A DNA stretch of 64,000 nucleotides, taken from the NCBI GenBank assembly GCA_015062525.1, contig SUUM01000004.1:24547-88546 (forward strand), written 5' to 3'. Below the pieces are notes generated by a model, which worked only from the letters and a program-made list of their open reading frames with translations, was not told the DNA's origin and made no database searches. Of the stretch, positions 12,383-61,317 are shown in pieces. The position numbers and the translations under genes were made by a program. This stretch comes from Alphaproteobacteria bacterium. GTDB taxonomy: Bacteria; Pseudomonadota; Alphaproteobacteria; Rs-D84. The stretch's first letter is position 1. Each line of letters begins with the position of its first letter.

Positions 12383-12469
12383 GCGGATATGGCGGAATTG
12401 GTAGACGCGCTAGTTTCAGGTACTAGTGGTAGCAATACCTTGGAAGTTCGAGTCTTCTTATCCGCACCA
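12383..12469 (+). tRNA. tRNA-Leu (anticodon CAG), type II with long variable arm
   Basis: Manual cloverleaf: acceptor GCGGATA/TATCCGC, anticodon stem CTAGT/ACTAG, loop TTCAGGT, encoded CCA. Confidence 0.8.
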
Positions 12470-12474
12470 GTTCT

Positions 12475-12550
12475 GGGGTTGTAGCTCAGTTGATAGAGCG
12501 CTACGTTCGCATCGTAGAGGTCGTGGGTTTGAGTCCCATCAGCTCCACCA
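12475..12550 (+). tRNA. tRNA-Ala (anticodon CGC)
   Basis: 76 nt; G3:U70 identity pair, loop TTCGCAT, T-loop TTTGAGT, encoded CCA. Confidence 0.8.
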
Positions 12551-12582
12551 AATTTACTTATCGGCTTTGCCGATTAGGAAAT

Positions 12583-12650
12583 TTGAGTGTCTCGGCGGTG
12601 CTTGCACCGACGGACGGAAAGAACTCAAATTGGAACAAACATATTCGATG
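12583..12650. repeat. hairpin element GTCTCGGCGGTGCTTGCACCGACGGAC (single copy of the 27365 tandem-repeat core)
   Basis: Same ~45-bp motif, including flanking aaatttgagt, as the 52-bp tandem units at 27365-27714. Confidence 0.7.
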
Positions 12651-12681
12651 CCGCGAATTGCGGCATTATTAAAAAGTCTTC

Positions 12682-12768
12682 GGGGATATGGCGGAATGGT
12701 AGACGCTGAGGACTTAAAATCCTTTGGTCATTGCGACCGTGTGGGTTCAAGTCCCACTATCCCCACCA
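12682..12768 (+). tRNA. tRNA-Leu (anticodon TAA), type II
   Basis: Acceptor GGGGATA/TATCCCC, loop CTTAAAA, long variable arm, encoded CCA. Confidence 0.8.
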
Positions 12769-12801
12769 CACATTCGCCCAACAAATGGCGATTTTTTATT
12801 T

Positions 12802-12878
12802 GGATGTGTAGCTCAGTTGGTTAGAGCGCTTCGTTCACATCGAAGAGGTCGTTGGTTCGAGTCCAATCACATCCACCA
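12802..12878 (+). tRNA. tRNA-Val (anticodon CAC)
   Basis: 77 nt; anticodon stem CTTCG/CGAAG, loop TTCACAT, T-loop TTCGAGT, CCA. Confidence 0.8.
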
Positions 12879-25424: not shown

Positions 25425-27062
25425 TCAGAACCTTGCATTCACCCCGATACGAATCCCAAGTGATTTATAAAAAGATTTTATTTCGCTATCCACCTTGTCT
25501 TCCCAGTTGTTTGCACGCACCACGGCAACATATTCAGGATCTAATTCAACCACTTGTCCATTCGTATCCAGGATACGATCTGCCTGGGAAATACCATTTT
25601 GCATAAAATGCTCTATCTGCGAATCCGAAAAAGTGTTTCCAAAATCAGTATTCAGCACCTTTTTCCACAGGTTAAATGCATTTTCATATTCTGGCACCCA
25701 ATAAGACGGATTCAAATACGTCGTAGCATCCGCGTCAGACACAGAATAATAATCATATGTCAAACCAATAGACAACGCAACCTTGTCCGTTATCGCGGTA
25801 CGCCAATTTGCCCCCATACCAAAATGGATTCCGGAACCAATCCCCCCCTTGTCCTGAACGGATTTTGGGTGTTGCCAATCAATACGATACGGCTGGTCGC
25901 CCGTGGCGGTGTACGACGGCAATCCTAACTCAACATTTGCCACCACAACATTATTCTGATTGATATCATATTGCATATCCAAAGCGACGTATGGACCCGA
26001 CCACTCAACCTCGTACGAATGACTCACATCCGGCTGCTCAAAATAGAACGTTCCTTCGGCCTCAACTAAATCATAGCCCCCAGGCACCTGAACCGCCGCA
26101 TAAACCGCATCCCCTTCCAGATAGCCATCGCCATCACTATCCACTAACTGATTTCCATTTGCATCAAAATAAGAATACCCAGGATACGCAGGATTCGCAT
26201 AATTCTGAATACCGTCAAACACCGCAATCAGTGGCCAACATTGTGTTGAACCGTCCATCAACGTTACACAGGACGCATCATAATCCGCATTAACAAAAAC
26301 CACACCTTTGTTGTTTGTCGTTTTCAAATCATATTTTAAATAGCGCCAACCAACCGATGGTGTAATTCTCAAATTCCCCAATTTAAAAAAGTCCGTCAGT
26401 CCAATACCAACATTGTAACCAAACATATCACCGTCTTTACTGACACCACTTGATAAAGCATGCCCCAGCTTCTCCCCTGTGAACGCATTACCCGCACTAT
26501 TCACACCATAATACAAACCATACAAATAACCACCATGACTAATATCATCATCAATCATACTGGTTTCACCAGTCTGCATACCATACTGCAACCCTGCGCC
26601 AATTTGCACGGCAGTATTACCAACATCAAAGACAGATTTAGCTGCCGCATCAAACACCAACCAGTCTATATTATCATAGTGTAATTTTGACCCCGCGGTA
26701 TCCATTTCAAATTCCCACATCGCCACCTGCTTAGACAACCCGGCATCCAAACTGAACCCATGCGCACTAGATTGTGTTGCCACACGTTTTTGTTGTGATT
26801 GCTGTGGCTGTTGTGGCTGTTGCGTCATTCCAGCACGCGAATTTGTTGTATACCCCGCATTTGCATACTGATTACGATTATACGCCGACACGCCCTGGGA
26901 CGAATAATTCGTTGTACGAGCACGCTGGGTATAAGACTGTTGCGAATAACTTCTCTGGGGGGATTGGTAATTCCCTGTATAATACGTGCCCGCAGCATGC
27001 GCACCCGCCGACACCAGCACAATTGCAGAACAACTAAACAAAAAACGTGGCAAGATTTTCAT
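25425..27062 (-). CDS. outer-membrane beta-barrel protein with a Q-rich N-terminal region
   Basis: Signal peptide MKILPRFLFSCSAIVLVSAGAHA; C-terminal beta-signal ending in ARF. Confidence 0.55.
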   Translation of the reverse strand: MKILPRFLFSCSAIVLVSAGAHAAGTYYTGNYQSPQRSYSQQSYTQRARTTNYSSQGVSAYNRNQYANAGYTTNSRAGMTQQPQQPQQSQQKRVATQSSAHGFSLDAGLSKQVAMWEFEMDTAGSKLHYDNIDWLVFDAAAKSVFDVGNTAVQIGAGLQYGMQTGETSMIDDDISHGGYLYGLYYGVNSAGNAFTGEKLGHALSSGVSKDGDMFGYNVGIGLTDFFKLGNLRITPSVGWRYLKYDLKTTNNKGVVFVNADYDASCVTLMDGSTQCWPLIAVFDGIQNYANPAYPGYSYFDANGNQLVDSDGDGYLEGDAVYAAVQVPGGYDLVEAEGTFYFEQPDVSHSYEVEWSGPYVALDMQYDINQNNVVVANVELGLPSYTATGDQPYRIDWQHPKSVQDKGGIGSGIHFGMGANWRTAITDKVALSIGLTYDYYSVSDADATTYLNPSYWVPEYENAFNLWKKVLNTDFGNTFSDSQIEHFMQNGISQADRILDTNGQVVELDPEYVAVVRANNWEDKVDSEIKSFYKSLGIRIGVNARF

Positions 27063-27237
27063 ATTACACCCTTTCCTTTTAATCCGTATCAAAAGATATT
27101 TTATCATAAAAAAGTTGAAAAACAAATTTAATATTGCAAAAATATATCACCAGGACACATATCATGTCTCACATTTGCGATCATGGCGACTACGTGAGCG
27201 AACGCGAACGTGCCGCCCAGAACCATTATTCAAACAC

Positions 27238-27322
27238 GCGACCATGGCGGAACTGGTAGACGCGCAGCACTAAGGATGCTGTGGGGCAACCCTTGGGGGT
27301 TCGATTCCCCCTGGTCGCACCA
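27238..27322 (+). tRNA. tRNA-Leu, type II; anticodon reads AAG (A34, unusual) by manual folding
   Basis: Acceptor GCGACCA/TGGTCGC; anticodon stem CAGCA/TGCTG with loop CTAAGGA; 5' half nearly identical to tRNA-Leu(CAG) at 12383. Confidence 0.65.
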
Positions 27323-27364
27323 CCAAATTTTCAAGCAAGCGCAGCGCGCGTTGAAAATTTGAGT

Positions 27365-27714
27365 GTCTCGGCGGTGCTTTGCACCGACGGACAGCAAGAA
27401 CCAACGGTTATTCAATGTCTCGGCAGTACCTTGCACCGACGGACAGCAAGAACCAACGGTTATTCAATGTCTCGGCAGTACCTTGCACCGACGGACAGCA
27501 AGAACCAACGGTTATTCAACGTCTCGGCGGTGCTTTGCACCGACGGACAGCAAGAACCAACGGTTATTCAGTGTCTCGGCGGTGCTTTGCACCGACGGAC
27601 AGCAAGAACCAACGGTTATTCAATGTCTCGGCGGTGCTTTGCACCGACGGACAGCAAGAACCAACGGTTATTCAATGTCTCGGCGGTGCCTTGCACAGAC
27701 GGGGTCTTGTCTCC
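27365..27714. repeat. 52-bp tandem repeat, 6 full + 1 divergent copy, each with hairpin CGGTGC-TTT-GCACCG
   Basis: Exact 52-bp periodicity (units at 27365, 27417, 27469, 27521, 27573, 27625, 27677); units 2-3 carry three transitions in the hairpin arm; a single homologous copy lies at 12583. Confidence 0.9.
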
Positions 27715-27765
27715 ATTTTCTACTTGCTCGACTTTTGATAAATTTGCTAACATTCATTCAACAGA

Positions 27766-30762
27766 ATGAAGGGAATTAAACTGCTTTTGGCTGTATTGCT
27801 TGCACCGCTTGCGTTTCAAGCGGTGGCGGCTGACAACACATCCGAAATCGCCCGCGCGGCTACGCGTCAAAACACTGGTGGCGGCATCACATCCGCCCGT
27901 CAAAGGGGCAACGCAACCCAACAAAAACCAACCTCAACATCACGTACAAGGAATGCCAACAAATCTGGGTCAACGTCCGTACGTGAACGCACAACCACCA
28001 CACCACGTGATGGCGCAACCACCACACGCACTGCCAAGACCCCCGAAAAAAACGTGTCGGCACGCAACGCGACAAAAATTCAGCCACGAACAATAAAAAC
28101 TGTTGCCCACGCCACACAACCACGTGCCACAACAACGGCACGCGTCGCGACAAAATCACGCGTTGCCACCACCACACCCAAAACACGCGCGCGCAATGCC
28201 ACCGCACCAGCAACAGGCACCGACGTATTAAACCGCGACTTTTCCAAGTGTCGTACGGTATTTTATGACTGTATGGATGAATTCTGCGCGAACAAGGACA
28301 GCCAACTGAAACGTTGCGCATGTTCAGCCCGCATAAACGAATTTGACGGGACTAAACGAAATCTTGCTAATGTAGAGGAAAAACTGCTGGATTTCAGCCA
28401 ACGTCTATTGACTGTCAATATGGACAAAGAAGATGCAATGGCGTTGTACAAACCGACCGAGGGCGAACTGGCCTATGCTACCGAAGACACATCTGCATCT
28501 AAAAAGATGTTGGACGAAATCGCCAAGAAATTAAACACAAGTTTTAACGACAACAACTTTGACCAGGGGTTAAACACCATATCTTTGTCATTAAATATGG
28601 ATTCTGCATTTGATACAGTTGATTCCATGGCGGGCGCATCAACGGCGGCAAAATCCGGCACAGATTTATACATATCCGCCCTGCCCGTATGCCGCGAAAT
28701 GGCGCTTGAGGTTTGCAGTTCCGACGACCTAGCAATCGCAGAAAGCAGTTATCAAATGGCAATTGAAAGCGACTGCAACACAGTAAAAAAATCATACCAA
28801 ACCCAGGTTGACCAGGCCCGCGAACAGGTATTTGAATCAGGCGCCCTGTTGGACATGTCGCGCCTTGACATTCATCAGAAACGAAATTCAGACGACGTAT
28901 TAACCTGCAAACGCAAGATGCTGGATATGCTAACCGATTCGACCGTCTGTGGCACAGACATGGGCAAATGCCTGGATACCACGGGGCGATACATTGACCC
29001 CACAACGGGCAAGGCGTTCCTGACAACGGAATTGGCAAACCTTGCTACATTAATAACACACCCCGAAACAGGTCAAACATGGCGCACCGCCCCTGGCAAT
29101 GACCGCTTCGTCACATTTTTAAATTCAAAAAAGAAGTTCTTAGAACCCGCCATGGAAAATTGCCAAGATATTTCCGACTATGTTTGGGACGAATTTATTA
29201 ACGACGCATTGGCACAAATCAAATTAGCCCAAGACAAAAAACTGGAAGAAATGCGCCAATCATGCACCACATTAACAACCCAATGTCTGGCAGAAACATA
29301 CGATTCGATTACAGAATTTGATGCACGTGCCCTATCAATTTTTGGCGTTGCCGCCGACAAAACCGTTAATGCTATGTGCGCTGACGTACAAACTGCATGC
29401 ACAGCATTAATGGAAACATCGGGCGGCGGTACAGATTGGCAATCCGGCATGACCGCAATCGCAACAGAAAAAACATATGAAACTATCCTGCAAACATGTC
29501 GTGAAGTTGGGCGCACCTGCATCATCCAAACATGCTCATCAATATCCGGCAACTTTGGGCTGTGTGAAAACATAGACACATCAATTAACCGCAAATCAAT
29601 AATCAACCGCAGTGCCTGCTGGAACGAAGTTGTCGCCTGTATTGCCAGTGCCGGTGCAGATTCCCTGACAAAAATTCAGTCACTGCATGCTTTGGACACA
29701 ATTAGAAACTCGGTTTCGGACACAACCGGCAATTCAACGGTAAATCGCCCAAATACATTCCGCACATTTTATGGCGAAATGTACGGCATAACAAATGCGG
29801 AAGATATTACCGTATCATTATCAGACACCGACACCATAACCCCATGTATCAGCAATGATGACACAAACTGTGTTTATGACATATGCACCACAGAATGTGC
29901 AAACGCAACCGAACAATCACCCGTTCCCACCGAATGTTATACATGTCGTCTGGCGGAACGTATTTGGGGCAATTGCGAAGCACCATCAAACACAGAATTG
30001 ACCAATACGCAACCCAACATCGACGGCAATGAAACAAGTGCTACATATCACAACCGCATTAAAACGAATGCGGACACCCTGTTGGCATGGTTTGCAGAAA
30101 ACACAGGAACCGACGGTTTAACCGACAGCTGTCGCGACACCAGTTGTCGCCCAGGCTATAAACTGGCCAACAATGGTTCATGTGTACCACCAGCCCTTAT
30201 TGCAGACAACGGTGAAACGTGCACAACTACTGATGATTACAGATATAATATCTACGACGATTATTCAGCATGTTGCGAAAGTGGCAAGAAAGATTATTAT
30301 GGCAACTGCTGCGAAGAAGAAGTCGCCAACCTCAACAACACAATAACCACACAAAACGACGACATATACTTTGGTGAAAAAGTCGTCAGTAAGATTTGCG
30401 CAACCCCAACCGCCAATTTGGCAAACCTGGTTGTTCGTTATACAGCCGACGACAAAACATATGATTTGATATGCCAAGGCGACATAACCTGGACAGGCAA
30501 TGAAGAAATCGGCTATCCAAACGGCAAAACCGTACATTGTAATGGCGAACTGGTACGCATTGACACAGACGGACACTATGATTCACCCCTAGGAACAAAT
30601 GGCATAACCGTATCAAATTATTACCTCGACCATGGACTCACATATAAATATGCTGGCACCCAACAGGGTAATATGTGGAATAACTGCGGTACAACATCAC
30701 AACCACAAACAACAGAAAATATTATAAATTGGTCAATTAAATACACAGAAGTATGTAATTAA
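27766..30762 (+). CDS. large secreted Cys-rich protein, paralog B (unknown function)
   Basis: Signal peptide MKGIKLLLAVLLAPLAFQAVA; T/R/A-rich disordered region; Cys-rich domain alignable with paralog A (CRTVFYDCMDEFC / CKNTYFSCMDQFC, etc.). Confidence 0.7.
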   Translation: MKGIKLLLAVLLAPLAFQAVAADNTSEIARAATRQNTGGGITSARQRGNATQQKPTSTSRTRNANKSGSTSVRERTTTTPRDGATTTRTAKTPEKNVSARNATKIQPRTIKTVAHATQPRATTTARVATKSRVATTTPKTRARNATAPATGTDVLNRDFSKCRTVFYDCMDEFCANKDSQLKRCACSARINEFDGTKRNLANVEEKLLDFSQRLLTVNMDKEDAMALYKPTEGELAYATEDTSASKKMLDEIAKKLNTSFNDNNFDQGLNTISLSLNMDSAFDTVDSMAGASTAAKSGTDLYISALPVCREMALEVCSSDDLAIAESSYQMAIESDCNTVKKSYQTQVDQAREQVFESGALLDMSRLDIHQKRNSDDVLTCKRKMLDMLTDSTVCGTDMGKCLDTTGRYIDPTTGKAFLTTELANLATLITHPETGQTWRTAPGNDRFVTFLNSKKKFLEPAMENCQDISDYVWDEFINDALAQIKLAQDKKLEEMRQSCTTLTTQCLAETYDSITEFDARALSIFGVAADKTVNAMCADVQTACTALMETSGGGTDWQSGMTAIATEKTYETILQTCREVGRTCIIQTCSSISGNFGLCENIDTSINRKSIINRSACWNEVVACIASAGADSLTKIQSLHALDTIRNSVSDTTGNSTVNRPNTFRTFYGEMYGITNAEDITVSLSDTDTITPCISNDDTNCVYDICTTECANATEQSPVPTECYTCRLAERIWGNCEAPSNTELTNTQPNIDGNETSATYHNRIKTNADTLLAWFAENTGTDGLTDSCRDTSCRPGYKLANNGSCVPPALIADNGETCTTTDDYRYNIYDDYSACCESGKKDYYGNCCEEEVANLNNTITTQNDDIYFGEKVVSKICATPTANLANLVVRYTADDKTYDLICQGDITWTGNEEIGYPNGKTVHCNGELVRIDTDGHYDSPLGTNGITVSNYYLDHGLTYKYAGTQQGNMWNNCGTTSQPQTTENIINWSIKYTEVCN

Positions 30763-30842: not shown

Positions 30843-31835
30843 ATGACAAGGATTTACGCATTTTTTTTCATATTATTATGCACGCATTCCATAGCATACG
30901 CGGTTGGCGTTGGTGGTGTTTGTGACCCATCAGGGTCTGCAGAACAACAATGTGACAACAACTTGTACTGCAATGAAATGGATGAATGCCAACGATGCCC
31001 AGTCTCATACCCAAATTCCATCCAGGGACAAAACAACATGATAGAATCATGTTATACAAACTGCGGCGCCAAACCCAATTTTTATCATGGCACATGGTTA
31101 CCAGATGATTCTACGGTATATTATGGAGATGTATGTCAATACACTAACAGCGATAATATCTCATGCGATAATTCAGCAGACCCGTGCATCGGATTTCACC
31201 TTGAAGGAACGGGCGACAATTCAAGGTGCGTTTCAAATATTACCGAATGTGAATCAGGATTCAAGATATACGATTCTGCCACATCTGGCTGGGGCGAATG
31301 CCTTATAACAGAATGCGAATCGGGATATCATCTGGAAATCACCGGCCGCATGTGCGAACAAAATCATGGGAACTGCGTTTCAGATACACACACATGTGAA
31401 TCTGAATTAACATGCGACTACGGGGAAATAACGGGAACATTTCACTGGCAAGAAAATGCATATGACTATTCTGAGTGCGAGTGCACCGGACCGGTAAATC
31501 TAAACCATGGCACAGGTACCAAACTTTGCACATGGGACAACAACTCATGGTCCAACTGTCAAATAACATTAGAAACATGTATTGCAGGTTATTGGCAGGG
31601 CGAATCTGAAAATCCAACAGATTGCACCCAGGTTTCTGCGGGTTATTATTCAGCCGAAAACGAACTTACCCGCTATGCATGTCCTGCGGGCTCGACATCC
31701 GCAGCGGGTTCAACCGACATAACCGCTTGCTATATGACCGGTGGCACAACACAAATTTGTGATGGGGACACCCCTGCAAATTGTTTCACCCTGCCCGACA
31801 ACGTCGGCTCAATCTATTATCACGGCGCCCAATAA
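30843..31835 (+). CDS. secreted Cys-rich protein with repeated CESG(Y/F) modules
   Basis: Signal peptide; repeats ITECESGFKIYD / ITECESGYHLEI / THTCESELTCDY; ~10% Cys. Confidence 0.55.
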   Translation: MTRIYAFFFILLCTHSIAYAVGVGGVCDPSGSAEQQCDNNLYCNEMDECQRCPVSYPNSIQGQNNMIESCYTNCGAKPNFYHGTWLPDDSTVYYGDVCQYTNSDNISCDNSADPCIGFHLEGTGDNSRCVSNITECESGFKIYDSATSGWGECLITECESGYHLEITGRMCEQNHGNCVSDTHTCESELTCDYGEITGTFHWQENAYDYSECECTGPVNLNHGTGTKLCTWDNNSWSNCQITLETCIAGYWQGESENPTDCTQVSAGYYSAENELTRYACPAGSTSAAGSTDITACYMTGGTTQICDGDTPANCFTLPDNVGSIYYHGAQ

Positions 31836-51514: not shown

Positions 51515-52612
51515 ATGACCAAGATACCAACAGTCAGAGAAATGGAAGAATTATTACTGCGTGATTCCACAACAGACGATTTGATGCCGGGCATGCCCGA
51601 TAAAGACATGCCTGAAAAACAAATAACCGCAGCAGATGTAAAACACGATGTCTCGGTCTTGGCACGATTGCTAATTCGTGCGTATGTTGGATGGCCGGTT
51701 CACAGCCAGATAATAAAAAGAAAGGTTCTTAAAGACCTGGTTGATATTTATAACAATGCCCACGATATGACGGCGATGGAGTTTTTTGAACAACTGAAAC
51801 CGGTCCTGTCATATATCCCAGACAATCACATATCGCTGCGTTTTAATAGGCAACGCGTTGGAACACACAGGACGCGCAAGGCAGTCAATGTCGGAAAAAA
51901 TATTGCTGGCGACAAACAAATTGCCACACAGATGAAAAATGGCATCGCCATAATCGGCTTTACACGCATGTTGCGCAATGATGATTTTGCCAACACAATT
52001 CTTGAATTTGCTAAAAACACACTGCCCAAATCCACCGCATTGATAATAGACCTGCGTGGCAATGGTGGCGGAAACAGTTTTTATTCCGACAAGTTCTCGG
52101 AACATCTGTGTGGCACACGGATTGATAGCATGAAAGAAGTATATATCAGGGCCACCCCAGAGGCAAAAAAACTACAACATGCGGCACAACCAAATGCCGG
52201 CTGGAAAGATGTTCCGGAATCAGAAGAACTGACATTATGGAAAACAGGCAAAAACTATACGGCCAATCCAGAGAAAGCGTATATGAAACCGATATATATT
52301 CTGACCGATGGCCAGACCGGGTCCAGTGCAGAAATGTTCCTGTTGCGCATGATTCACCACCCATGTGTTCATGTTGTTGGCGATAATTCAGCTGGAATGG
52401 AAGAATACGGCAATATGGCAAACAGTTTCCTGCCACACAGCCAAATAACCGTTGCAGTCGGTATGAACTATCGCAAATTATTACAAGAAGATTTCGAATT
52501 AAATGGACACGACCCCGACATCAAATGTCCAGATGGCACAGATGCATTTGCCGTTGCAATGGCCCAGATTGAAAAAGCCAAAACATTACAATCGCAGACA
52601 CCCGAAAGATAG
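51515..52612 (+). CDS. S41-family (C-terminal processing/tail-specific protease-like) peptidase
   Basis: IIDLRGNGGGNS motif typical of S41 peptidases; no signal peptide. Confidence 0.55.
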   Translation: MTKIPTVREMEELLLRDSTTDDLMPGMPDKDMPEKQITAADVKHDVSVLARLLIRAYVGWPVHSQIIKRKVLKDLVDIYNNAHDMTAMEFFEQLKPVLSYIPDNHISLRFNRQRVGTHRTRKAVNVGKNIAGDKQIATQMKNGIAIIGFTRMLRNDDFANTILEFAKNTLPKSTALIIDLRGNGGGNSFYSDKFSEHLCGTRIDSMKEVYIRATPEAKKLQHAAQPNAGWKDVPESEELTLWKTGKNYTANPEKAYMKPIYILTDGQTGSSAEMFLLRMIHHPCVHVVGDNSAGMEEYGNMANSFLPHSQITVAVGMNYRKLLQEDFELNGHDPDIKCPDGTDAFAVAMAQIEKAKTLQSQTPER

Positions 52613-52622
52613 TCCAAAAATC

Positions 52623-53261
52623 CTACACTGCTTGCGATAACCAATCCGGCATATCAATCAGCGTGAATTTTTCACCATCATATTCCAGTTTGAAATATTC
52701 TGCATTTGGCATTCCGCCACGTGGCCATTTTATATCTGTGAATTGTTTGATTATATTTTTCGCCACCCCCGTATGTGTTGCAATGGCGATTGTTTTGCCG
52801 TCTGAGTTTTTTACGATATCCAATATCGCATTACGAACACGCGCAATAAACATATTATAACTTTCACCGTTTGGTGGGACATAATCGTCATTAGACAGCA
52901 ATGCAAACGGTGCATAAATTACATCACCTGACATATCAATCGGGGTATCTGCAGGGCTATCAGTCAATTTTACAATATGTCCACAAAAATCACCCATATT
53001 CCATTCACGCAAATCACCATTTTGTATAATCTGTTGGTCGCCAGCCACCGCACGTGCTGTATCCAATGCACGCGACAACGACGAAGAATACACAACATCA
53101 AACTTTATACCCGACAATTTTTGTGCCAATGCTTGTGCCTGGGCCACACCATTGGCATTTAATGGCACGTCCAGCCACCCCTGCATACGTTTTTGGATAT
53201 TTGCGTCTGTTTCGCCATGTCGAAAGATATAAAGTATTTTTTTCATGATAGAATTATACAA
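52623..53261 (-). CDS. histidine phosphatase (phosphoglycerate mutase-like) family protein
   Basis: N-terminal RHGETDAN catalytic motif. Confidence 0.7.
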   Translation of the reverse strand: MYNSIMKKILYIFRHGETDANIQKRMQGWLDVPLNANGVAQAQALAQKLSGIKFDVVYSSSLSRALDTARAVAGDQQIIQNGDLREWNMGDFCGHIVKLTDSPADTPIDMSGDVIYAPFALLSNDDYVPPNGESYNMFIARVRNAILDIVKNSDGKTIAIATHTGVAKNIIKQFTDIKWPRGGMPNAEYFKLEYDGEKFTLIDMPDWLSQAV

Positions 53262-53289
53262 TCTAAACCACCAATTATCAACATGTGTT

Positions 53290-53345
53290 ATCTGTTAAAA
53301 TGCTATGTGAGGCGATTTGTGATGCACTAATAAAAAAACCGCCCA
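53290..53345. repeat. partial modular repeat R4 (head motif + terminator)
   Basis: gctatgtgaggcgatttgtgatgca followed by ctaataaaaaaaccgcccaatcgggcgggg. Confidence 0.7.
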
Positions 53346-53361
53346 ATCGGGCGGGGTAATA

Positions 53362-54255
53362 TTACCTGTCGTTTTGGTTGTTATTTTTTGCCCAGGACTT
53401 TTGCATCTGATATTTTATTTCATCAAATCTAAATTCTGCAAAACCAATCAATTCAGACAAAAGCATTTCTTTTTCAGCGCGCGTAAATTTGCGCGGTTTA
53501 TGGGTTGCGACAAAATCCGCACGCATTTGGCGTAATTTTGTAGTCTGTTCCCCTGTTGGCATTTTGTGTGGTGACAAAGCCCTGTCTGTGCGAACAATAT
53601 TATTCTGGCGCAGGTTTATGTACGCCATATCGCCGGGACCTTCGGTATAATTTTGATATTTGAAACCAGTCAGACCAATTGATTCAAAATACAAAATCAT
53701 ACGCTGAAAGAACAAGTTTTCTGCGCTGTGGATATCAAATAATGTTTCCAAACCTAATTCTGTTTGTATTGCTTCCACAGTCATTGTGCTACGCACCGGT
53801 TCACATATCCAATCAAACTGCCACGGCACATCAATGTCCTTATCCAACACCGCTTGTTTTGCTGTTTCAATCTGTTTGCGAAACTCAGATTCGTCATGAA
53901 TATTCAACACACGAATGAAGTCGGCAATTTTATCGCCACACATATACTGAAATAAAACCCCCATAAAGTTCTGCACACTGTGGTCGTTCAGGTCTGGTAT
54001 TTCATCCCAACGCCCAGCCTGCAAATTCACGGGTATTATCTTGGGCTTTGTAATATCAATATTTGGGTCGCGTTTCCATTTTCCTTCGTTCAGATTGGTT
54101 TGTGCATTCACCAATTTGCCAAAGTGTGTCAATGGGCGAAAATAATCAAAATCATAATAAGTGCCATGATACATTGTTAAAGGTTTGCCATCTGTCCCCA
54201 ACAACACCGGCGATAAACAATCGGGCATATCAATAATATATGGAAACGAAACCAT
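53362..54255 (-). CDS. hypothetical protein (297 aa)
   Basis: Start overlaps the GNAT gene stop (operon); no recognisable domain. Confidence 0.5.
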   Translation of the reverse strand: MVSFPYIIDMPDCLSPVLLGTDGKPLTMYHGTYYDFDYFRPLTHFGKLVNAQTNLNEGKWKRDPNIDITKPKIIPVNLQAGRWDEIPDLNDHSVQNFMGVLFQYMCGDKIADFIRVLNIHDESEFRKQIETAKQAVLDKDIDVPWQFDWICEPVRSTMTVEAIQTELGLETLFDIHSAENLFFQRMILYFESIGLTGFKYQNYTEGPGDMAYINLRQNNIVRTDRALSPHKMPTGEQTTKLRQMRADFVATHKPRKFTRAEKEMLLSELIGFAEFRFDEIKYQMQKSWAKNNNQNDR

Positions 54256-54836
54256 TACTTACCCTTATATTCCGACTTTAGTTTCGAAAACAACAGATGA
54301 TTCATATATGTGCCGTCTGGCATTTTATTCGCAGCACGTTCAACACCATCCAGTTGATAACCAGCCTTTTTAATCGAATTTACCGAACAAACATTGCCCT
54401 CCATCGCCTGACGACAGATACGATTTACCCCCAGTTCTTCAAAACCCAATTTATCAATCAGCTTATGCACTTCCTGATTAAAGCCTTGGCCGCGAGCAGA
54501 TTTAATAAACCATACACTGGAACACTGTATCGTATCACAATGGTCTATGTAGTGAAACCGCTGATATCCAACGAATTTGCCATTATGAAAGATATACCAA
54601 ACAACACCGTCTTTATAACCTGCCTCTCGCTGCATCAATTTTAACAGTTCATCGACAGATTCAGGCAAATGATTTTTGTATGATGCTGAATACCGCATAT
54701 ACTGATAATCGGCTGGATTTTCATTTTTCAGCACATCCCACAACATCTGTGCGTTCGCAATAGTTGGCTTTAATACTCGCAACTCTAAACGTTCCGTCTT
54801 AATATCGCGATTAAATATTTCATAAAATTTTTCCAT
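54255..54836 (-). CDS. GNAT family N-acetyltransferase (RimJ/RimL-like)
   Basis: 193 aa with acetyl-CoA-binding motifs (Q/R-x-x-G-x-G/A pattern ARGQGFNQ). Confidence 0.65.
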   Translation of the reverse strand: MEKFYEIFNRDIKTERLELRVLKPTIANAQMLWDVLKNENPADYQYMRYSASYKNHLPESVDELLKLMQREAGYKDGVVWYIFHNGKFVGYQRFHYIDHCDTIQCSSVWFIKSARGQGFNQEVHKLIDKLGFEELGVNRICRQAMEGNVCSVNSIKKAGYQLDGVERAANKMPDGTYMNHLLFSKLKSEYKGK

Positions 54837-54888
54837 CTACTTTGTCCTTTTGTTATCCCATTTATTTTATCACATTTTTTGTTAAAAT

Positions 54889-55195
54889 GCTATGTGATGC
54901 GATGTGTGATGCAGGCGGACCAAATCAACTGTCTGAAAATATTGGAAATCTGGGACTTTGGACTTGCCTTGGCATTCCGACAAAGGCTACCCGTTTAAAA
55001 ACGCACCAAACGGTGCGTTTTTTGTTTGGTTTTCCCTGCCCTGTTGAGTTTTTATGCTTGGCGCGCCACCTGCGCAGGGCGGATGGGTTTTATTTTATTC
55101 GGGGCGTGCAAACGCAACCAAATCCTACCCCACGTCCCCAAAACACCAAAAACTGTGATGCAACAATAAAAATCCGCCCATTTGGGCGGGTTTAT
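54889..55195. repeat. modular repeat copy R5 (terminator-exit variant)
   Basis: Full-length copy ending ctgtgatgcaacaataaaaa + hairpin ccgcccatttgggcgg. Confidence 0.85.
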
Positions 55196-55215
55196 CTTGT
55201 TAAATATTTTCACAA

Positions 55216-55782
55216 TTATTCTGCGTCCTGTTGTTTCTTGCGCAACATTAATTCTGGTTTGCCAGCATTTAATTCTGGCGACACTGCAAAACCCAATCCG
55301 TCTATGAATGATTGAATCTGAGATTTCACTTGCGCCACATCCACATCATCGGCGGTGCAATATTCCACCTCTAAAAACAGCCCCAGATCTGCCACAGTTT
55401 CAAATTCAATTGTATAATCGCCCGCACGGTATGTGCGTTTCAGGTTGTCAATCCGTATCAATTCACGCAACCCCAGCGCATTCATAATATCGCACAAAGT
55501 TGACATATCAGCAACGGTTGTTTCGGATTCATCAGAATACAACCATGTGTCACCGTCAAAATGGTCGTACTTGTACGTGATATAATTTGTGCCGTCTTTT
55601 GCACGTGTGCGACAGCATGCATACAAGCGGCCATTGCTGTCGGGTTGTAAATCTGGGCGCAATGGGTCGTAATAGTATGTATCCACCGTACGTTTATCGC
55701 CCAAGAAGTCAAATTCAGATAATTTACGCAGAACATCTGCTTCGTCTGCGAAAACCTGAACCAAGATTTCAATTTCTTTCAT
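55216..55782 (-). CDS. CYTH-domain protein (triphosphate tunnel metalloenzyme / class IV adenylate-cyclase-like)
   Basis: N-terminal KEIEIL and C-terminal GLFLEVEY motifs typical of CYTH; the Lys of EIExK is replaced. Confidence 0.55.
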   Translation of the reverse strand: MKEIEILVQVFADEADVLRKLSEFDFLGDKRTVDTYYYDPLRPDLQPDSNGRLYACCRTRAKDGTNYITYKYDHFDGDTWLYSDESETTVADMSTLCDIMNALGLRELIRIDNLKRTYRAGDYTIEFETVADLGLFLEVEYCTADDVDVAQVKSQIQSFIDGLGFAVSPELNAGKPELMLRKKQQDAE

Positions 55783-56170
55783 AAGATGCACCCTTTGTGA
55801 TATTCTAAACCGCTTTTTCAGAAATATCAATATTTTCCAATGGAATATAATGTCTGTGACACAAGTAAATCCGCCGGCAGTTGTGGATGGAATAGCAGGT
55901 CCAGGATTGGCACCCAGTGCATATCATCGTGGACACGCAGTTGGATTTCGTATGTGTGGTCCAAAATCTTGTATACGTGCGGAATTACACAAGCAGAAAA
56001 TATTGCGCAACCGATAAGAATCTTTTGTTATCCCGCAATTCAATGCTCACCCAAATTCAACAGATGTCAAAAAGGATTGTATGCTGTGAAAAAATCAGCA
56101 TATATAAACTTTGACAACATAAATATTGTAATCTATACTGATTCTATAACCCCAGCCATAAGGATTTGAA

Positions 56171-57016
56171 ATGCCTGAAAAAAACACCCTGTATGATAAT
56201 TTGCGCAATCCAGTTTCAACAATTGAACGCGGGCAACCAATCCCCAGCGGATTGAACAAGCTGTCTGTGCATGTATGGATTGTAAATGATGCCGGCGAAT
56301 ACCTGTTGCAACAACGCATGGGTACGGCCAAGAAATTTCCAAATATGTGGGGCCAGACTGGTGGCGGGGCAATCGCAGGCGAATCCAGTTGGGATGCGTG
56401 TGTTCGCGAAACAATGGAAGAGTTAGGACTGACACCAGACCCAAAAAAATCTGTATTGGTTGGCACAATTAAGCGACCGATAGATTTCGTTGATGTGTGG
56501 CTAGTGCACAGTAATGTTAAAATTTCTGATTTAAAACCACAGGCAAGCGAGGTGCAATCCGTCAAGTGGGCAACACTGGCGGATATTCAACACATGCAGT
56601 ACGACAATGAATTTATTCCGTCTATTGTTCCAGGGTTTAATATGGTTTTGAATTATCAGAAAATGGTAAATCCCACGCCAGTAAATGCACGTGATTTCTT
56701 GGGCAAATTAGTGCGTGTACAAATGGACAGGCCCCTGGGCAGCAAACATCCAAAACACGGCTTTACATACGAAGTGAATTATGGTTTTATCCCAAACACC
56801 ATATCGGGCGATGGCGAGGAGTTAGATGCGTATGTATTGGGGCCAGATTATCCGTTAAAGGATTTTCTGGGACGATGTATTGCAATCATTCACCGTACTA
56901 ATGACAACGACGATAAACTGATTGTTGTACCGGATGGGTTTGATTTTGCAGATGAATATATTGAACAAAAAACTGCTTTCCAAGAACAGTGGTTCAAGCA
57001 CACGATTATAAGATAA
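56171..57016 (+). CDS. NUDIX hydrolase fused to an inorganic pyrophosphatase-like domain
   Basis: Nudix box GGGAIAGESSWDACVRETMEELGL; C-terminal region matches family I PPase (YEVNYGFIPNTISGDGEELDAYVLG vs E. coli [23 protein letters not shown]). Confidence 0.65.
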   Translation: MPEKNTLYDNLRNPVSTIERGQPIPSGLNKLSVHVWIVNDAGEYLLQQRMGTAKKFPNMWGQTGGGAIAGESSWDACVRETMEELGLTPDPKKSVLVGTIKRPIDFVDVWLVHSNVKISDLKPQASEVQSVKWATLADIQHMQYDNEFIPSIVPGFNMVLNYQKMVNPTPVNARDFLGKLVRVQMDRPLGSKHPKHGFTYEVNYGFIPNTISGDGEELDAYVLGPDYPLKDFLGRCIAIIHRTNDNDDKLIVVPDGFDFADEYIEQKTAFQEQWFKHTIIR

Positions 57017-57035
57017 AATCAAGGGGGGGATAGTC

Positions 57036-57440
57036 ATGCGAACACAAACAACAAGCAGATGTTTAATTGTTCAAGGTGATAGCATCGTTTTATGCAAGCA
57101 CTTGGCTGGCGGTTATTATTTCTTGCCTGGTGGTGGATTGGAAATTGGCGAAACATTGAATCAGTGCATTACACGTGAACTGAATGAAGAAATGGGCGTT
57201 GCAGAATCTGACATCACTATTCATGATGGCATCTTATTGGCTATTGAAAATCAGGGCTATGATTCCAATGGAAATTTCCTGTACGGGATTGAAGTTATTA
57301 AACGTGTGGACATCGATGCAGATGACATAAGCAGCAAAGAGGATTTGATTGGCTTTGAAAAAGTGAAAATTTCTGATTTGCCAGGCACAAAATTATATCC
57401 TGTTGTTATTAAAAATTGGATAATAGAAAGATTCAAATAG
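57036..57440 (+). CDS. NUDIX hydrolase
   Basis: Nudix box GGGLEIGETLNQCITRELNEEMGV. Confidence 0.8.
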   Translation: MRTQTTSRCLIVQGDSIVLCKHLAGGYYFLPGGGLEIGETLNQCITRELNEEMGVAESDITIHDGILLAIENQGYDSNGNFLYGIEVIKRVDIDADDISSKEDLIGFEKVKISDLPGTKLYPVVIKNWIIERFK

Positions 57441-57455
57441 AAGGAACACTTACAA

Positions 57456-58205
57456 ATGACAAGATATTATTGCAGCGGTTTTGACCTTAATAATATTTTT
57501 GGACACGGACTTGGCAAGATGTTCAAAGCCGAACTAGAAGACACAAAGAGCATAGTCTATATTCCTGCTGGTGCGGAAAAAATAGAAAAAGCACGTGCAA
57601 AACATATTCCTAATTTCACAAAGCATTTCAAAAATGTGGGAATAGAATTTGAATCTGTAAATATCATCACGCCCGAACTGTCCCCCGCAGAAGCAAAGGA
57701 TATGATAAAAAATGCAAACTTTGTCATGCTGATGGGTGGTAACCCCTATAAGCAAAAAGACCTTTGTAAAAGTTTGAACATTTTAGACGACTTGAAGAAC
57801 TATAATGGTGTTATGCTGGGGTTTAGTGCGGGTGCTATGATGATGTCTAAATATATCATTATCACGCCTTGTAGTGATGAGTTTCCAAATTTTCATATTG
57901 AGCCAGGTTTAAATCTGGATGGCATTTCAATTTATCCACATAATAACACATCAGACAAGGATTATCCGGAAGAACTTGTTTCTGGTGATGAAGTGTATAA
58001 AAAGTCAGATTTGCTACAGGTTGCCAAAGATTATGGTAAATTCTATCTATTACAGGATAATTTAAGAGAAGATGGCCTAACAGATGTCAGCTTTATCAGA
58101 TGTTCTAATGGTAATGTTGAATTTTATATCGAAAACGATGGCAAGATTTGGTTAGTTGACAAGGATATAACGCTGGTTAAAAATAATGAACCGTTGGACT
58201 TTTGA
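57456..58205 (+). CDS. peptidase S51 (dipeptidase E/cyanophycinase-like) family protein
   Basis: LMGGNPY and GFSAGA (Ser nucleophile) motifs match PepE IVGGGNTF / GWSAGA. Confidence 0.6.
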   Translation: MTRYYCSGFDLNNIFGHGLGKMFKAELEDTKSIVYIPAGAEKIEKARAKHIPNFTKHFKNVGIEFESVNIITPELSPAEAKDMIKNANFVMLMGGNPYKQKDLCKSLNILDDLKNYNGVMLGFSAGAMMMSKYIIITPCSDEFPNFHIEPGLNLDGISIYPHNNTSDKDYPEELVSGDEVYKKSDLLQVAKDYGKFYLLQDNLREDGLTDVSFIRCSNGNVEFYIENDGKIWLVDKDITLVKNNEPLDF

Positions 58206-58524
58206 TAATGATGAATTGTTTGAACTAGTGCGCATAGGTCGAAAACGTGGAACCTGTGGCCGGAATTCTGACGAAGAACCAATGGCAAAAATTGGTGATG
58301 TTCAGGAAATCTATAATAGTCGTGGCGAAACAATACGAATTCAAATTACAGCCGTTCGAAAGTGTCGGTTTTGTGACATTGATGACGCATGGGCAAAAAT
58401 AGAGGGCGAAGGCGACCTGTCCCTGGCATACTGGCGTACGGTTCATATTGAATTTTTTAACAAATACTTTCCCGATTTTCAGGAAACTGATTGGCTGGAA
58501 TTAAACGAGTTTGTGGTTATATAA
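58186..58524 (+). CDS. ASCH (PUA-like) domain protein
   Basis: EGEGDLSLAYWRTVHIEFF pattern typical of the ASCH domain. Confidence 0.55.
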   Translation: MNRWTFDNDELFELVRIGRKRGTCGRNSDEEPMAKIGDVQEIYNSRGETIRIQITAVRKCRFCDIDDAWAKIEGEGDLSLAYWRTVHIEFFNKYFPDFQETDWLELNEFVVI

Positions 58525-59299
58525 CCTCTAATTCAATCCCCACAATGCCGTATTTTGATTCCATTTCGGCATCGTAAAATTTTGATATTGCGGACATCAA
58601 TGCGTTTAGCGATGCGAAACCGGTTCGGGGCATGCTGATTTTTGTGGCCAAGTCTGCAAAACTGCGCGCAATATGCAGGCGAACGATCTTTGCACGAATA
58701 TAATCATTGCGATTTTGCGCATCATATATCAGAATAACGTCGCCGTTGTGCATTCTGCGACGTTTTTCATCATACAGGCACAGTTCAATATCCTTTTCGC
58801 CGGAACGCACCATTTCATAATATTCAGGGCGCAAGCTCATTGAAAATTTACAGTCCAAGTTTGGCAAAATGTGCAGCGCATAAAATTCACGCATATCGTC
58901 AAATGGTGTGATTTTTGGGTTTAATAAGTCGTCGGGGGCAACCCATGCAACCGAAATTTCTTCGGGGCGATTTTCACAGAAATTCAATTCCATATCATCT
59001 GGGACGTGAACGATAAAAAAGTGATGTTCTTCGGCCCATGCGCCACGTTTTTGCGCCCGTTCGGGGGTTGGGTGACGAAATGCATATGGCACCGGAATTT
59101 CAACCACTTGGTCTGCCAGCGCAGATACAGCTTCGCCCAATTCTTCGGTCAGTTCACGCCGCAACGCAGTCAAAAAATCTTCGCCATCATCCAGTCGCCC
59201 GCCAATTGGTCCGTATCCGTTTTCGCCGTATTTTAATAGTGCAACCTGTCCATCACGCACTGGCAAGATATATGCTGAATAACTGATATCTTTTATCAT
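58517..59299 (-). CDS. NUDIX hydrolase fused to a C-terminal ASCH-like domain
   Basis: Nudix box PIGGRLDDGEDFLTALRRELTEELGE; C-terminal YYEMVRSGEKDIELCLYDEKRR..GDVILIY resembles ASCH. Confidence 0.6.
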   Translation of the reverse strand: MIKDISYSAYILPVRDGQVALLKYGENGYGPIGGRLDDGEDFLTALRRELTEELGEAVSALADQVVEIPVPYAFRHPTPERAQKRGAWAEEHHFFIVHVPDDMELNFCENRPEEISVAWVAPDDLLNPKITPFDDMREFYALHILPNLDCKFSMSLRPEYYEMVRSGEKDIELCLYDEKRRRMHNGDVILIYDAQNRNDYIRAKIVRLHIARSFADLATKISMPRTGFASLNALMSAISKFYDAEMESKYGIVGIELEVI

Positions 59300-59301
59300 C
59301 T

Positions 59302-59802
59302 CTATTCCTGGGGTTGTAGGGGTTCAATTGTTTGAATCGTCATATGTATTTCGCCTGATGGCACACTAACGGTTGTTTCATCCCCAACAGATAATCCGAC
59401 CAAGGGATGAACCAGTGGCATATTATATGCGTACTTTTGTTGCGGTATGTCTTCTGCCCCCAATGGCACAATCCCCAGCCTGCATTCTGTTTCTGCGCCA
59501 GTGGTTTCATTTTCTTGGGTCACGCATACCCAGCAATACAGTCCGACTGTTTCTGTGGTTGCCGGCTTATTCCTTGGTACGACAAGCATATTGTCCAGGT
59601 CTGCCAATAAATCAGCGACCAATTTTTCTGTCTGCTTTTCTTCCCTGGTCAAATGTTCATAGGCAAAATTATCATGCCATGTGTTTGTGTCTTCTGTGTA
59701 TGCAGCTGTCTTATCGTTGCGTATCTGGGCCAGTCGCTCTTGCAGCCCTTGAACCTTCCGTTGGGACTTATCAAAGTATTCTTTTGTTACAAAAATTTTC
59801 AT
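59302..59802 (-). CDS. GreA/GreB-domain protein (Rnk-like)
   Basis: C-terminal FKBP-like GreA domain pattern (VGLSVGDETTVSVPSGEIHMTIQTIE). Confidence 0.5.
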   Translation of the reverse strand: MKIFVTKEYFDKSQRKVQGLQERLAQIRNDKTAAYTEDTNTWHDNFAYEHLTREEKQTEKLVADLLADLDNMLVVPRNKPATTETVGLYCWVCVTQENETTGAETECRLGIVPLGAEDIPQQKYAYNMPLVHPLVGLSVGDETTVSVPSGEIHMTIQTIEPLQPQE

Positions 59803-59811
59803 TTCTGTTCC

Positions 59812-60582
59812 TTACAGATTTAATAAAACATCCTTTATTCGTGAACGAACTGCATGGTATTTTGCACGCAAGTCTGCGCCTTGGCCGACCAGATGTTGGC
59901 CAACGGCTGAATTATCAGACACAACCAACAGTGCCGATGCGGGTTTGCCTATAATCTGCATGGCCTTGAAAAAGGTTGCCGTTTCCATTTCTATCAGGGT
60001 TGCGCCCATTTGTCGAAACTCGTCCAAGTGTGCATATTCGCAAGCGATACTGTCGATTGATATTGGTGTCGCATCTTTGGTAGACATACCAACACTTGTG
60101 CAAACTCTCGACAATTCTGCATTTAATTCTGGTGATGAATATGTGCGTTCAAACATCTTTTCTGGACTTAATTTATCATCCAGGTACAATGTTGCGCCAT
60201 TGCCAGATATAGAACATGTTGGAACAATAACATCCCCGATTTCTAGTTCCGGAACCAATGAACCCACCGAGCCAACAAATACAAATTTTGCACAGTTGGC
60301 CGAATGACAGGACAAACAAAAGTCAACTATATTTGGCGCACCAACCTGTAATTGAATATATAAGTATGATTTGCCGTTATGTTTTATACGATGTGATTTT
60401 GAGAATCTGTCTGAATATATTTCAGCAATATCTGTTGTGGCACTATCAAAGACTTTATCAATTGGCCAAGATGGTGCAATAAATACGCAATCAAAATGTT
60501 CGGCAGACGATATTCCATACAGCTGTTGTAACATATCCGAACAAGATATGTTATCCTGACATGATTTGACTATTTTATTCAT
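59812..60582 (-). CDS. PNP/UDP-phosphorylase superfamily nucleosidase/phosphorylase (MTAN-like)
   Basis: FVGSVGSL and IEMETA motifs of the PNP_UDP_1 fold. Confidence 0.6.
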   Translation of the reverse strand: MNKIVKSCQDNISCSDMLQQLYGISSAEHFDCVFIAPSWPIDKVFDSATTDIAEIYSDRFSKSHRIKHNGKSYLYIQLQVGAPNIVDFCLSCHSANCAKFVFVGSVGSLVPELEIGDVIVPTCSISGNGATLYLDDKLSPEKMFERTYSSPELNAELSRVCTSVGMSTKDATPISIDSIACEYAHLDEFRQMGATLIEMETATFFKAMQIIGKPASALLVVSDNSAVGQHLVGQGADLRAKYHAVRSRIKDVLLNL

Positions 60583-61052
60583 TTTGTATCCTTTGATGCA
60601 CTGCGATATGATTTACATTCGGAATATATTTCGCCACGCGCCAATCCCGCCAATGATATACGGGTTGTTGAAACAACGTTCTTCAATTTGGCGACTTCGT
60701 CCAATGTGAAATATTGCATATCGGCACACTTGTCCCCCTCGCAATTACGAATTGTGCCGGTGTATTTTGACACCTCGAAAAAGAAATCAAAAGATTCTGT
60801 GCGACTGGCCAGATTGCTGGTAACGTGTACGCATTTGATGTCGTCGGGCGCAATGTCGATATCCAGTTCTTCTTTGGCCTCACGTATGGCGGCGGCACGT
60901 GCGGTTTCACCTTGTTCAATGTGCCCCGCCGGCAGAACCCACCAACCACCATCATAATTAAAAAAGCCATCATTGCGGAAGAATAATAACACTTTGTCGT
61001 CTTTTTTTATAATCAGGTTTATTACACCCTTGAACATTGCGCGTTCTGCCAT
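60579..61052 (-). CDS. NUDIX hydrolase
   Basis: Nudix box GHIEQGETARAAAIREAKEELDI; 4-bp overlap with the upstream gene. Confidence 0.8.
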   Translation of the reverse strand: MAERAMFKGVINLIIKKDDKVLLFFRNDGFFNYDGGWWVLPAGHIEQGETARAAAIREAKEELDIDIAPDDIKCVHVTSNLASRTESFDFFFEVSKYTGTIRNCEGDKCADMQYFTLDEVAKLKNVVSTTRISLAGLARGEIYSECKSYRSASKDTK

Positions 61053-61317
61053 TTCTTATCCTTTTTCTTATCTTAAACTGCTTTTTACGAAAATTCAATT
61101 ATTTCATATGGCCATTTTTATAATCGATATTTCTAATTCTTCTGGTGTTATACCTGCGTGGTGACTTTTAAGCACAAATGTGTCTGGCCGCTGTTTCAAG
61201 TCATATTTATCAGTTGCCAGCGCAACAAAATCATCAAAAACCGTGATATGATAAGATAAAAAACTTTTTTACACAAAACAGCCAATCGTAAAAAGAAAGC
61301 ACCATTTGGTGCTTTCT

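Follow-up and report, generated by a model that had tools for sequence, protein, structure and literature searches.

Bacterial tRNAs that carry A at position 34 and do not accept arginine are among the rarest bacterial anticodon choices. The original prediction for this DNA was correct in stressing this rarity. Experimental work on A34 outside the arginine tRNA rests almost wholly on the Lactobacillales. The minimal TadA substrate architecture is an A34 in a 7-nt loop that is capped by C32-A38 and set on a 5-bp stem. Conversion of bacterial tRNA-Leu(AAG) to the IAG form is established in Oenococcus and Streptococcus, and surveys find Leu(AAG) nearly confined to the Bacilli, with scattered cases in Mollicutes and Prochlorococcus, in AT-rich genomes (PMC13249217; bioRxiv 10.64898/2026.05.15.725136; PMC8266599). 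The TadA of Streptococcus pyogenes has the loop consensus YUAMGRA, relaxed at positions 35 and 37, whereas Escherichia coli TadA rejects the Leu(AAG)-type loop and fails to deaminate the streptococcal Leu(AAG) (PMC11472039). The C32-A38 pair is extensively hydrogen-bonded by TadA (PMC11802342). In E. coli, ANN tRNAs engineered for four-fold boxes escape modification (bioRxiv 10.64898/2026.05.15.725136). Lack of modification is also reported for some A34 tRNAs that occur naturally in bacteria, and base pair 32-38 modulates how G34 tRNAs decode (PMC8266599).

We analyzed a tRNA-Leu(AAG) gene at 27238..27322 (+ strand) in a 64,000-nucleotide stretch of Rs-D84 alphaproteobacterial DNA, called the window throughout. 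Rs-D84 genomes are ~0.75-1.0 Mb (PMC12306168), and the window is therefore ~7% of a genome. The Leu(AAG)/(IAG) of Lactobacillales (S. pyogenes, S. mutans, Oenococcus oeni) is likewise a type II tRNA with A34. Its loop likewise fits YUAMGRA, with positions 33-38 identical as judged from PMC11472039, and it is likewise fixed in its lineage and accompanies CUU-rich leucine usage. It stands in the usual place of Leu(GAG), as the Rs-D84 tRNA probably does. The hosts differ in that Rs-D84 is a Gram-negative, reduced-genome alphaproteobacterium of ~44% GC and the Lactobacillales are AT-rich firmicutes. CUC is nearly abolished in Rs-D84, whereas the Lactobacillales show increased use of both codons, CUU as well as CUC (PMC13249217). 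Demonstrations of I34 and of a permissive TadA exist for the Lactobacillales, and both are putative in Rs-D84.

Three other systems are informative for comparison. The canonical I34 system, tRNA-Arg(ACG) and TadA, has the same A34, 7-nt loop, C32-A38 cap, and 5-bp stem; tRNA-Leu(AAG) has A35 and G37 in place of C35 and A37, and serves another amino acid. The alphaproteobacterial Leu(GAG) tRNAs offer the closest backbone, with the same D-arm and a similar variable arm, but they have G34, the loop UUGAGGU, and a G31-C39 pair, compared to A34, CUAAGGA, and A31-U39 in tRNA-Leu(AAG). The unmodified-A34 tRNAs, namely tRNA-Thr(AGU) of Mycoplasma capricolum and the engineered ANN tRNAs of E. coli, share A34, a four-fold box, and a small genome with the Rs-D84 case. 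They are tolerated or beneficial and favor U-ending codons. Rs-D84 differs from them by the near-disappearance of the C-ending codon and by a loop with TadA-type features. The Leu(AAG) type is thus already known from lactic acid bacteria, and what is new is not a mechanism but a phylogenetically distant, Gram-negative, reduced-genome lineage in which it is fixed.

A tRNA-Leu(AAG) gene fixed in the Rs-D84 clade

ARAGORN identified six tRNAs in the window and placed a tRNA-Leu with the anticodon aag at exactly 27238-27322 (+). The gene is type II, with a long variable arm (13 nt with a 3-bp stem), discriminator A73, and an encoded CCA. Rfam RF00005 matched 27238-27319 at 54.5 bits (E 5.8e-09 for the whole window; gathering score 29), which is comparable to the scores of the other leucine tRNAs in the window, Leu(CAG) at 52.8 bits and Leu(UAA) at 62.4 bits. 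The Infernal alignment defines the anticodon arm at 27265..27281 (+), in which the stem CAGCA/UGCUG (27265-27269 and 27277-27281, TGCTG in the DNA) carries the 7-nt loop CUAAGGA (CTAAGGA, 27270-27276). ARAGORN and Infernal agree on the anticodon A34-A35-G36 at 27272..27274 (+), and no alternative register yields GAG or TAG. The manual fold and AAG anticodon of the original prediction are borne out by both programs, which also settle its concern that an alternative fold might give a different anticodon. The candidate inosine deamination site, A34, is nucleotide 27272; G37 is directly 3' of the anticodon at 27275, and C32 (27270) and A38 (27276) cap the loop, all on the + strand. The combined pattern of D-arm, loop, and T-loop occurs once in the window compared to 0.00 times expected from shuffles. 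The thermodynamic minimum free energy fold shifts the anticodon stem by one pair and was set aside in favor of the covariance model and covariation.

LeuRS ignores the anticodon and recognizes A73 and the tertiary core, as known for the E. coli enzyme. The leucine identity elements that are independent of the anticodon are present in the gene: A73 before CCA, the conserved D-arm core, and G18G19. The D-arm GGCGGAAnTGGTAGACGC is the same as the D-arm of the organism's three other leucine tRNAs. Because LeuRS is blind to the anticodon and uses A73 and the core, the tRNA would still be charged with leucine. A weak sigma-70-like promoter match (TTGAAA, 17 nt, AAAAAT, with TG), tentatively assigned by consensus scan, lies at 27115..27143 (+), ~95 nt upstream of the tRNA. 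The scan returned 2 sites against 0.7 expected from shuffles, and the match is no evidence of function.

Four independent metagenome assemblies, each from a different sample, contain the 85-nt gene without a single difference. JGI contig Ga0257089_10002047 overlaps the window, and this organism was met again in many samples. A scan of one genome per GTDB species, using a pattern composed of a Leu-type D-arm, CTAAGG, and a T-loop, gave at least 120 loci. Among the matches listed, 18 loci have the anticodon arm GCAGCA-CTAAGGA-TGCTG, and they belong to animal-gut Alphaproteobacteria MAGs that include Candidatus Enterousia. The closest among the matches listed are identical at 84/85 (L091) and 82/85 (L095) positions. 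ARAGORN called Leu(aag) in 18 of the 18 clade loci, and A34 is present in all of them. The stems are intact in the 16 distinct clade variants, where all 368 stem cells pair (100%). Changes on both sides of a pair occur at five of the seven acceptor pairs and at one variable-arm pair, and the covariation score is 0.236 compared to 0.086 for shuffled alignments and ≤0.054 with the partners slid. None of these variants has a change in the D, anticodon, or T arm.

A search of 241 million metagenome records for this backbone with A34 replaced by C, G, or T found no clade relative, which indicates that A34 is fixed in the clade. The sole non-A34 backbone match in these records was a Leu(UAG) from an unrelated organism of 74% GC. 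Across the clade, the AAG gene always lies between the Pom gene and a gene for a 998-aa Cys-rich protein. This position is conserved despite only 66-77% DNA identity in the flanking genes, so tRNA-Leu(AAG) is an old orthologue. A sequencing or assembly error in the loop, which the original prediction had named as a risk, or a pseudogene, has nothing in its favor beyond the rarity of the AAG anticodon. Set against it are the four identical assemblies, A34 in 18 related species-level MAGs, the compensatory stem changes with complete pairing, and the normal covariance-model score, which make the chance of an artefact or dead gene negligible. These data show that the gene is a real, functional-looking tRNA-Leu with an AAG anticodon and that it is fixed throughout the Rs-D84/Candidatus Enterousia group.

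The scan also located Leu(AAG) outside this clade. The matches listed include Akkermansia muciniphila and many Akkermansiaceae and other Verrucomicrobiales, Opitutales, and Planctomycetota, along with Nannocystis, Haliangium, Micavibrio, Deferribacterales, Acidimicrobiia, and one Saccharibacteria MAG. Cultured strains are represented by Luteolibacter sp. AS25, Rubritalea spongiae, Luteolibacter marinus, and Nannocystis pusilla. Our literature search found no report of Leu(AAG) for Alphaproteobacteria, Verrucomicrobiota, Myxococcota, or Planctomycetota. The range of Leu(AAG), which includes the last three of these phyla, is wider than in published surveys. The view that Leu(AAG) occurs in only a few lineages agrees with the literature, but the genome scan finds a far wider spread.

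Origin and probable decoding role of the gene

BLAST comparison to PLSDB, which includes several alphaproteobacterial chromosomes and chromids, gave best-matching tRNAs in Sinorhizobium, Rhizobium, Methylobacterium, and Ruegeria. Each of these tRNAs is a Leu(GAG), with 77-84% identity to tRNA-Leu(AAG). In three of the four genera the GAG arm is CAGCG-UUGAGGU-CGCUG compared to CAGCA-CUAAGGA-UGCUG in tRNA-Leu(AAG), and four of the five anticodon-stem pairs are common to both. Because the nearest outside relatives are all Leu(GAG), the AAG gene is an altered GAG isoacceptor that differs by G34A, U32C, U38A, and a change of the 31-39 pair from G-C to A-U. Its ancestor was an ordinary alphaproteobacterial tRNA-Leu(GAG) in which G34 was replaced by A, U32...U38 by C32...A38, and the G-C closing pair at 31-39 by A-U. 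The derived state was fixed ahead of clade diversification.

Two other origins were considered. The original prediction saw the gene as a recent duplicate of tRNA-Leu(CAG), the CUG reader at 12383..12469 (+), with a changed anticodon, and pointed to near-identity in the 5' half. The two genes are indeed nearly identical over positions 7-28, but this stretch is the D-arm, ATGGCGGAAnTGGTAGACGC, which is generic to leucine tRNAs and is not a signal of duplication. It is also found in the organism's Leu(UAA) and Leu(CAA) and in the foreign Leu(GAG) of Sinorhizobium, Rhizobium, Methylobacterium, and Ruegeria. Across the whole alignment of the AAG and CAG genes, 64 of 89 columns are identical (72%), and the acceptor, anticodon, and T stems of the AAG gene differ from those of Leu(CAG). 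Together with a locus that is syntenic over a deeply diverged clade and GAG tRNAs as the nearest outside relatives, these differences make a recent CAG duplicate very improbable, and that part of the prediction is abandoned. Horizontal gain of a ready-made Leu(AAG) from a gut neighbor, such as Akkermansia or a member of the Lactobacillales, would draw on the fact that AAG-bearing Akkermansia live in the same habitat. However, no more than 64-68 of the 85 positions agree with the Akkermansia tRNAs, whose acceptor and anticodon stems also differ, whereas the backbone is 77-84% identical to alphaproteobacterial Leu(GAG) and has the stem CAGC/GCUG in common with it. The conserved chromosomal position also argues against transfer, which we regard as highly unlikely. 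Derivation from a GAG isoacceptor is the origin that we retain.

The leucine tRNAs in the ~82 kb made up of the window and ~18 kb of flanks are CAG, UAA, AAG, and CAA. The companion tRNA-Leu(UAA), which reads UUR, is located at 12682..12768 (+), and the fourth, Leu(CAA), is found ~7 kb past the window's right end (L124, 1397-1481). Leu(GAG), Leu(UAG), and Arg(ACG) were not found in the window and its ~18 kb flanks, which cover ~9% of a ~0.9 Mb genome. Leu(CAG) and Leu(UAA) are part of a tRNA cluster at 12383-12878 with the order Leu(CAG)-Ala(CGC)-Leu(UAA)-Val(CAC). Isoacceptors with C34 are usually dispensable. Three of them are kept in this ~0.9 Mb genome, and thus the tRNA set is not minimal.

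In this inventory, tRNA-Leu(AAG) would be the clade's decoder of CUU and CUC, and possibly of CUA. We infer that the gene is expressed, that its product is charged with leucine, and that it replaces Leu(GAG) genome-wide. A G34 reads U by G:U wobble only. CUU exceeds CUC ~10- to 20-fold in the clade, so a wobble base that pairs well with U, either A34 or I34, would be favored over G34.

Leucine codon usage and the state of position 34

CTC accounts for 7 of the 1371 leucine codons in the window (0.39 per 1000 codons). No sense codon is rarer, and the next rarest is 6-fold more frequent. The CTC/CTT ratio over 17 clade loci, 16/345 = 0.05, is below the C/T ratios of all other codon pairs and compares to 1.18 for CGC/CGT. 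The depletion extends beyond the codon. The GAG/CTC trinucleotide occurs in the window at 0.18 of expectation, or 0.45 after dinucleotide correction, and it is depleted on both strands and in all three frames, with weaker depletion in intergenic DNA (0.31-0.46). GAG/CTC odds are 0.06-0.28 in 17 of the 18 clade loci, and the AG/CT dinucleotide has odds of ~0.5 at all three codon positions, also across the codon junction. Sense-strand counts are 2 against 101 expected for CTCC and 18 against 249 expected for GGAG. CTC is at 0.05 of expectation in frame compared to 0.15-0.18 off frame, a gap that can be explained by synonymous sites that are free to respond to the same pressure. The gap is therefore not clean evidence for a decoding defect.

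Because GAG/CTC is scarce in every frame, on either strand, and between genes, decoding does not account for most of the CUC rarity, and on these grounds a purely translational avoidance of CUC was rejected. Shine-Dalgarno avoidance as the sole cause was also rejected, because CTC on the sense strand is even rarer than GAG. The ribosome-binding sites resemble AAGGA/AGGA, and GAG is found at -22 to -4 in only 9 of 54 predicted genes; Shine-Dalgarno sequences thus avoid GAG too. There was no signal of CUC reassignment in the alignment of three CTC codons from acetate kinase and RNase HII to solved homologues, where they correspond to Ile, Ile, and Leu.

The same tRNA does not bring this pattern elsewhere. 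The 13 other AAG-bearing groups sampled, which include Akkermansia, Luteolibacter/Rubritalea, Opitutales, Planctomycetota, Nannocystis/Haliangium, and other Alphaproteobacteria, have CTC/CTT ratios of 0.26-4.5 that track GC content, and CUC makes up 7-44% of their leucine codons. Their AG/CT and GAG/CTC values are normal. CUC at 7-44% of leucine needs an efficient reader of C, and these groups therefore presumably need I34. Within the clade, the relative L098 (55% GC) has the same tRNA arm and uses CUC for ~8-15% of leucine.

With modest confidence, we favor deamination of A34 to inosine over an unmodified A34. The organism's TadA would convert the tRNA to tRNA-Leu(IAG), as occurs in Streptococcus and Oenococcus, and this form would read CUU, CUC, and CUA. 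The loop CUAAGGA fits the relaxed consensus YUAMGRA and not the strict E. coli consensus YUACGAA, from which it departs at positions 35 and 37. These are also the only positions at which it differs from the tRNA-Arg(ACG) loop, and they are splayed out and flexible in the streptococcal enzyme. C32-A38 caps the 5-bp stem and is derived compared to the U32/U38 of the GAG tRNAs. A38 is present in 121 of the 121 AAG tRNAs among the matches listed, which come from many phyla, although this position was left free in the search; all 121 have the loop CUAAGGA, and 115 have A31-U39. CGC is heavily used (CGC/CGT 0.8-1.2), which suggests that an active TadA acts on tRNA-Arg. A regular-expression search for the CDA-type motif H(A/S)E...PCxxC found no tadA in the window, the ~18 kb flanks, or the 18 clade loci.

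The original prediction posed the right choice here, between a TadA of relaxed specificity and an unmodified A34 decoder. The second has the same gene, origin, and function but leaves A34 unmodified, so that the tRNA would be a CUU specialist that pairs A:U and decodes CUC poorly, with the codon near extinction. In a variant, GAG/CTC avoidance removed CUC first, and the change from G34 to A34 was harmless with TadA unchanged. The near-absence of CUC is what an unmodified A34 predicts, and it would also remove selection for I34. The codon data give this reading substance: CTC is the rarest sense codon, the clade CTC/CTT ratio is the lowest in contrast to CGC/CGT in the presumed I34 arginine box, CTC is scarcer in frame than off frame, and the pattern is seen in 0 of the 13 other AAG-bearing groups. 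Biochemical precedent points the same way, since Leu(AAG) is not accepted by E. coli-type TadA, cells tolerate unmodified ANN tRNAs in four-fold boxes, and some A34 tRNAs found naturally in bacteria reportedly lack the modification. The rejection by E. coli TadA and the unmodified ANN tRNAs mean that a permissive proteobacterial TadA is not to be assumed. The change to C32/A38 could reflect tuning of codon-anticodon affinity after the loss of G34 rather than TadA recognition. However, the GAG/CTC depletion also affects the other frames, the opposite strand, and intergenic DNA, and the excess depletion in frame is explicable by freely responding synonymous sites. The derived C32-A38 loop, universal among the AAG tRNAs listed, is a TadA contact, L098 combines this tRNA arm with use of CUC, and I34 is present in each natural bacterial Leu(AAG) tested to date. 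An unmodified A34 is therefore a substantial possibility that we hold with less confidence than deamination. Its more specific form, in which a strand-symmetric GAG/CTC pressure converts CTC to CTT codons and the GAG to the AAG anticodon in parallel while A34 stays unmodified, is offered tentatively, as less likely than not. If it were true, Rs-D84 would have a natural unmodified-A34 leucine decoder, and CUC would be heading to unassigned in a 44% GC genome.

Returning to the favored inosine reading, the distribution of the gene suggests that Verrucomicrobiota (including Akkermansia muciniphila), Myxococcota, Planctomycetota, and other phyla came to the same solution, in every case with an A38 loop. 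If so, TadA of relaxed specificity would be commoner than the E. coli paradigm implies. What distinguishes Rs-D84 is the link of Leu(AAG) to the near-loss of CUC and to a GAG/CTC avoidance. The combination of Leu(AAG) with the near-loss of CUC makes Rs-D84 an informative outlier. It provides a natural test of whether I34 is needed once the C-ending codon is gone, and of the joint evolution of compositional pressure and anticodon choice.

Surroundings of the locus

The genes neighboring the tRNA include BamD/YfiO, MurJ, Pom, and Pth, and GcrA is encoded in the flank. Their identities help to assign the window to Rs-D84, an uncultured gut order that comprises Candidatus Enterousia and its relatives. 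The outer-membrane gene of the Pom family (Protochlamydia-type) occupies 25425-27125 on the - strand. Directly downstream of the tRNA, in a position conserved across the clade, are two genes for Cys-rich, secreted-looking proteins without a Pfam match, one of 998 aa (27766-30762, +) and one of 330 aa (30843-31835). Three of the seven CTC codons in the window are in the C-terminal part of the 998-aa gene. A MAG contig labelled 'uncultured Muribaculaceae' (L045, CAZUED010000014.1) carries an Rs-D84-type tRNA-Leu(AAG) whose flank matches the Pom region at ~25.9-27.3 kb, and this contig is probably mis-binned.

A 52-bp tandem repeat of 6.5 copies with 95% identity spans 27364-27702 and starts 42 bp 3' of the tRNA. 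Each unit forms a hairpin of -16.6 kcal/mol, and the array generates spurious open reading frames at 27281-27779. The array has 5 compared to 6 cores between samples and is absent from L091, the closest relative among the matches listed. Lying between the tRNA and the 998-aa gene, it constitutes a VNTR that differs at the strain level.

The right part of the window differs between samples. Genes at ~61.3-64 kb are common to L125 and L126, which represent the same organism in other samples, and the adjoining genes differ. L125 and L126 carry an HNH endonuclease and a phage-type integrase where the window has NUDIX, ASCH, PNP_UDP, GreA, and CYTH. GC content falls to 0.37-0.42 at ~52000-61300, and this segment looks like a strain-variable island.

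Two further features of composition extend over larger distances. GATC (0.13 of expectation, 0.14 after Markov correction) and CTAG (0.12) are strongly avoided in the whole window, and for GATC this points to a restriction system or a constraint related to Dam. GC skew is very strongly negative (-0.19 to -0.29) in many 2-kb segments of positions 1-55000 and shifts toward or above zero at + strand genes, for example at 12-16 kb and 56-58 kb. The skew follows gene strand, and the coding strand is therefore markedly G-rich over C.
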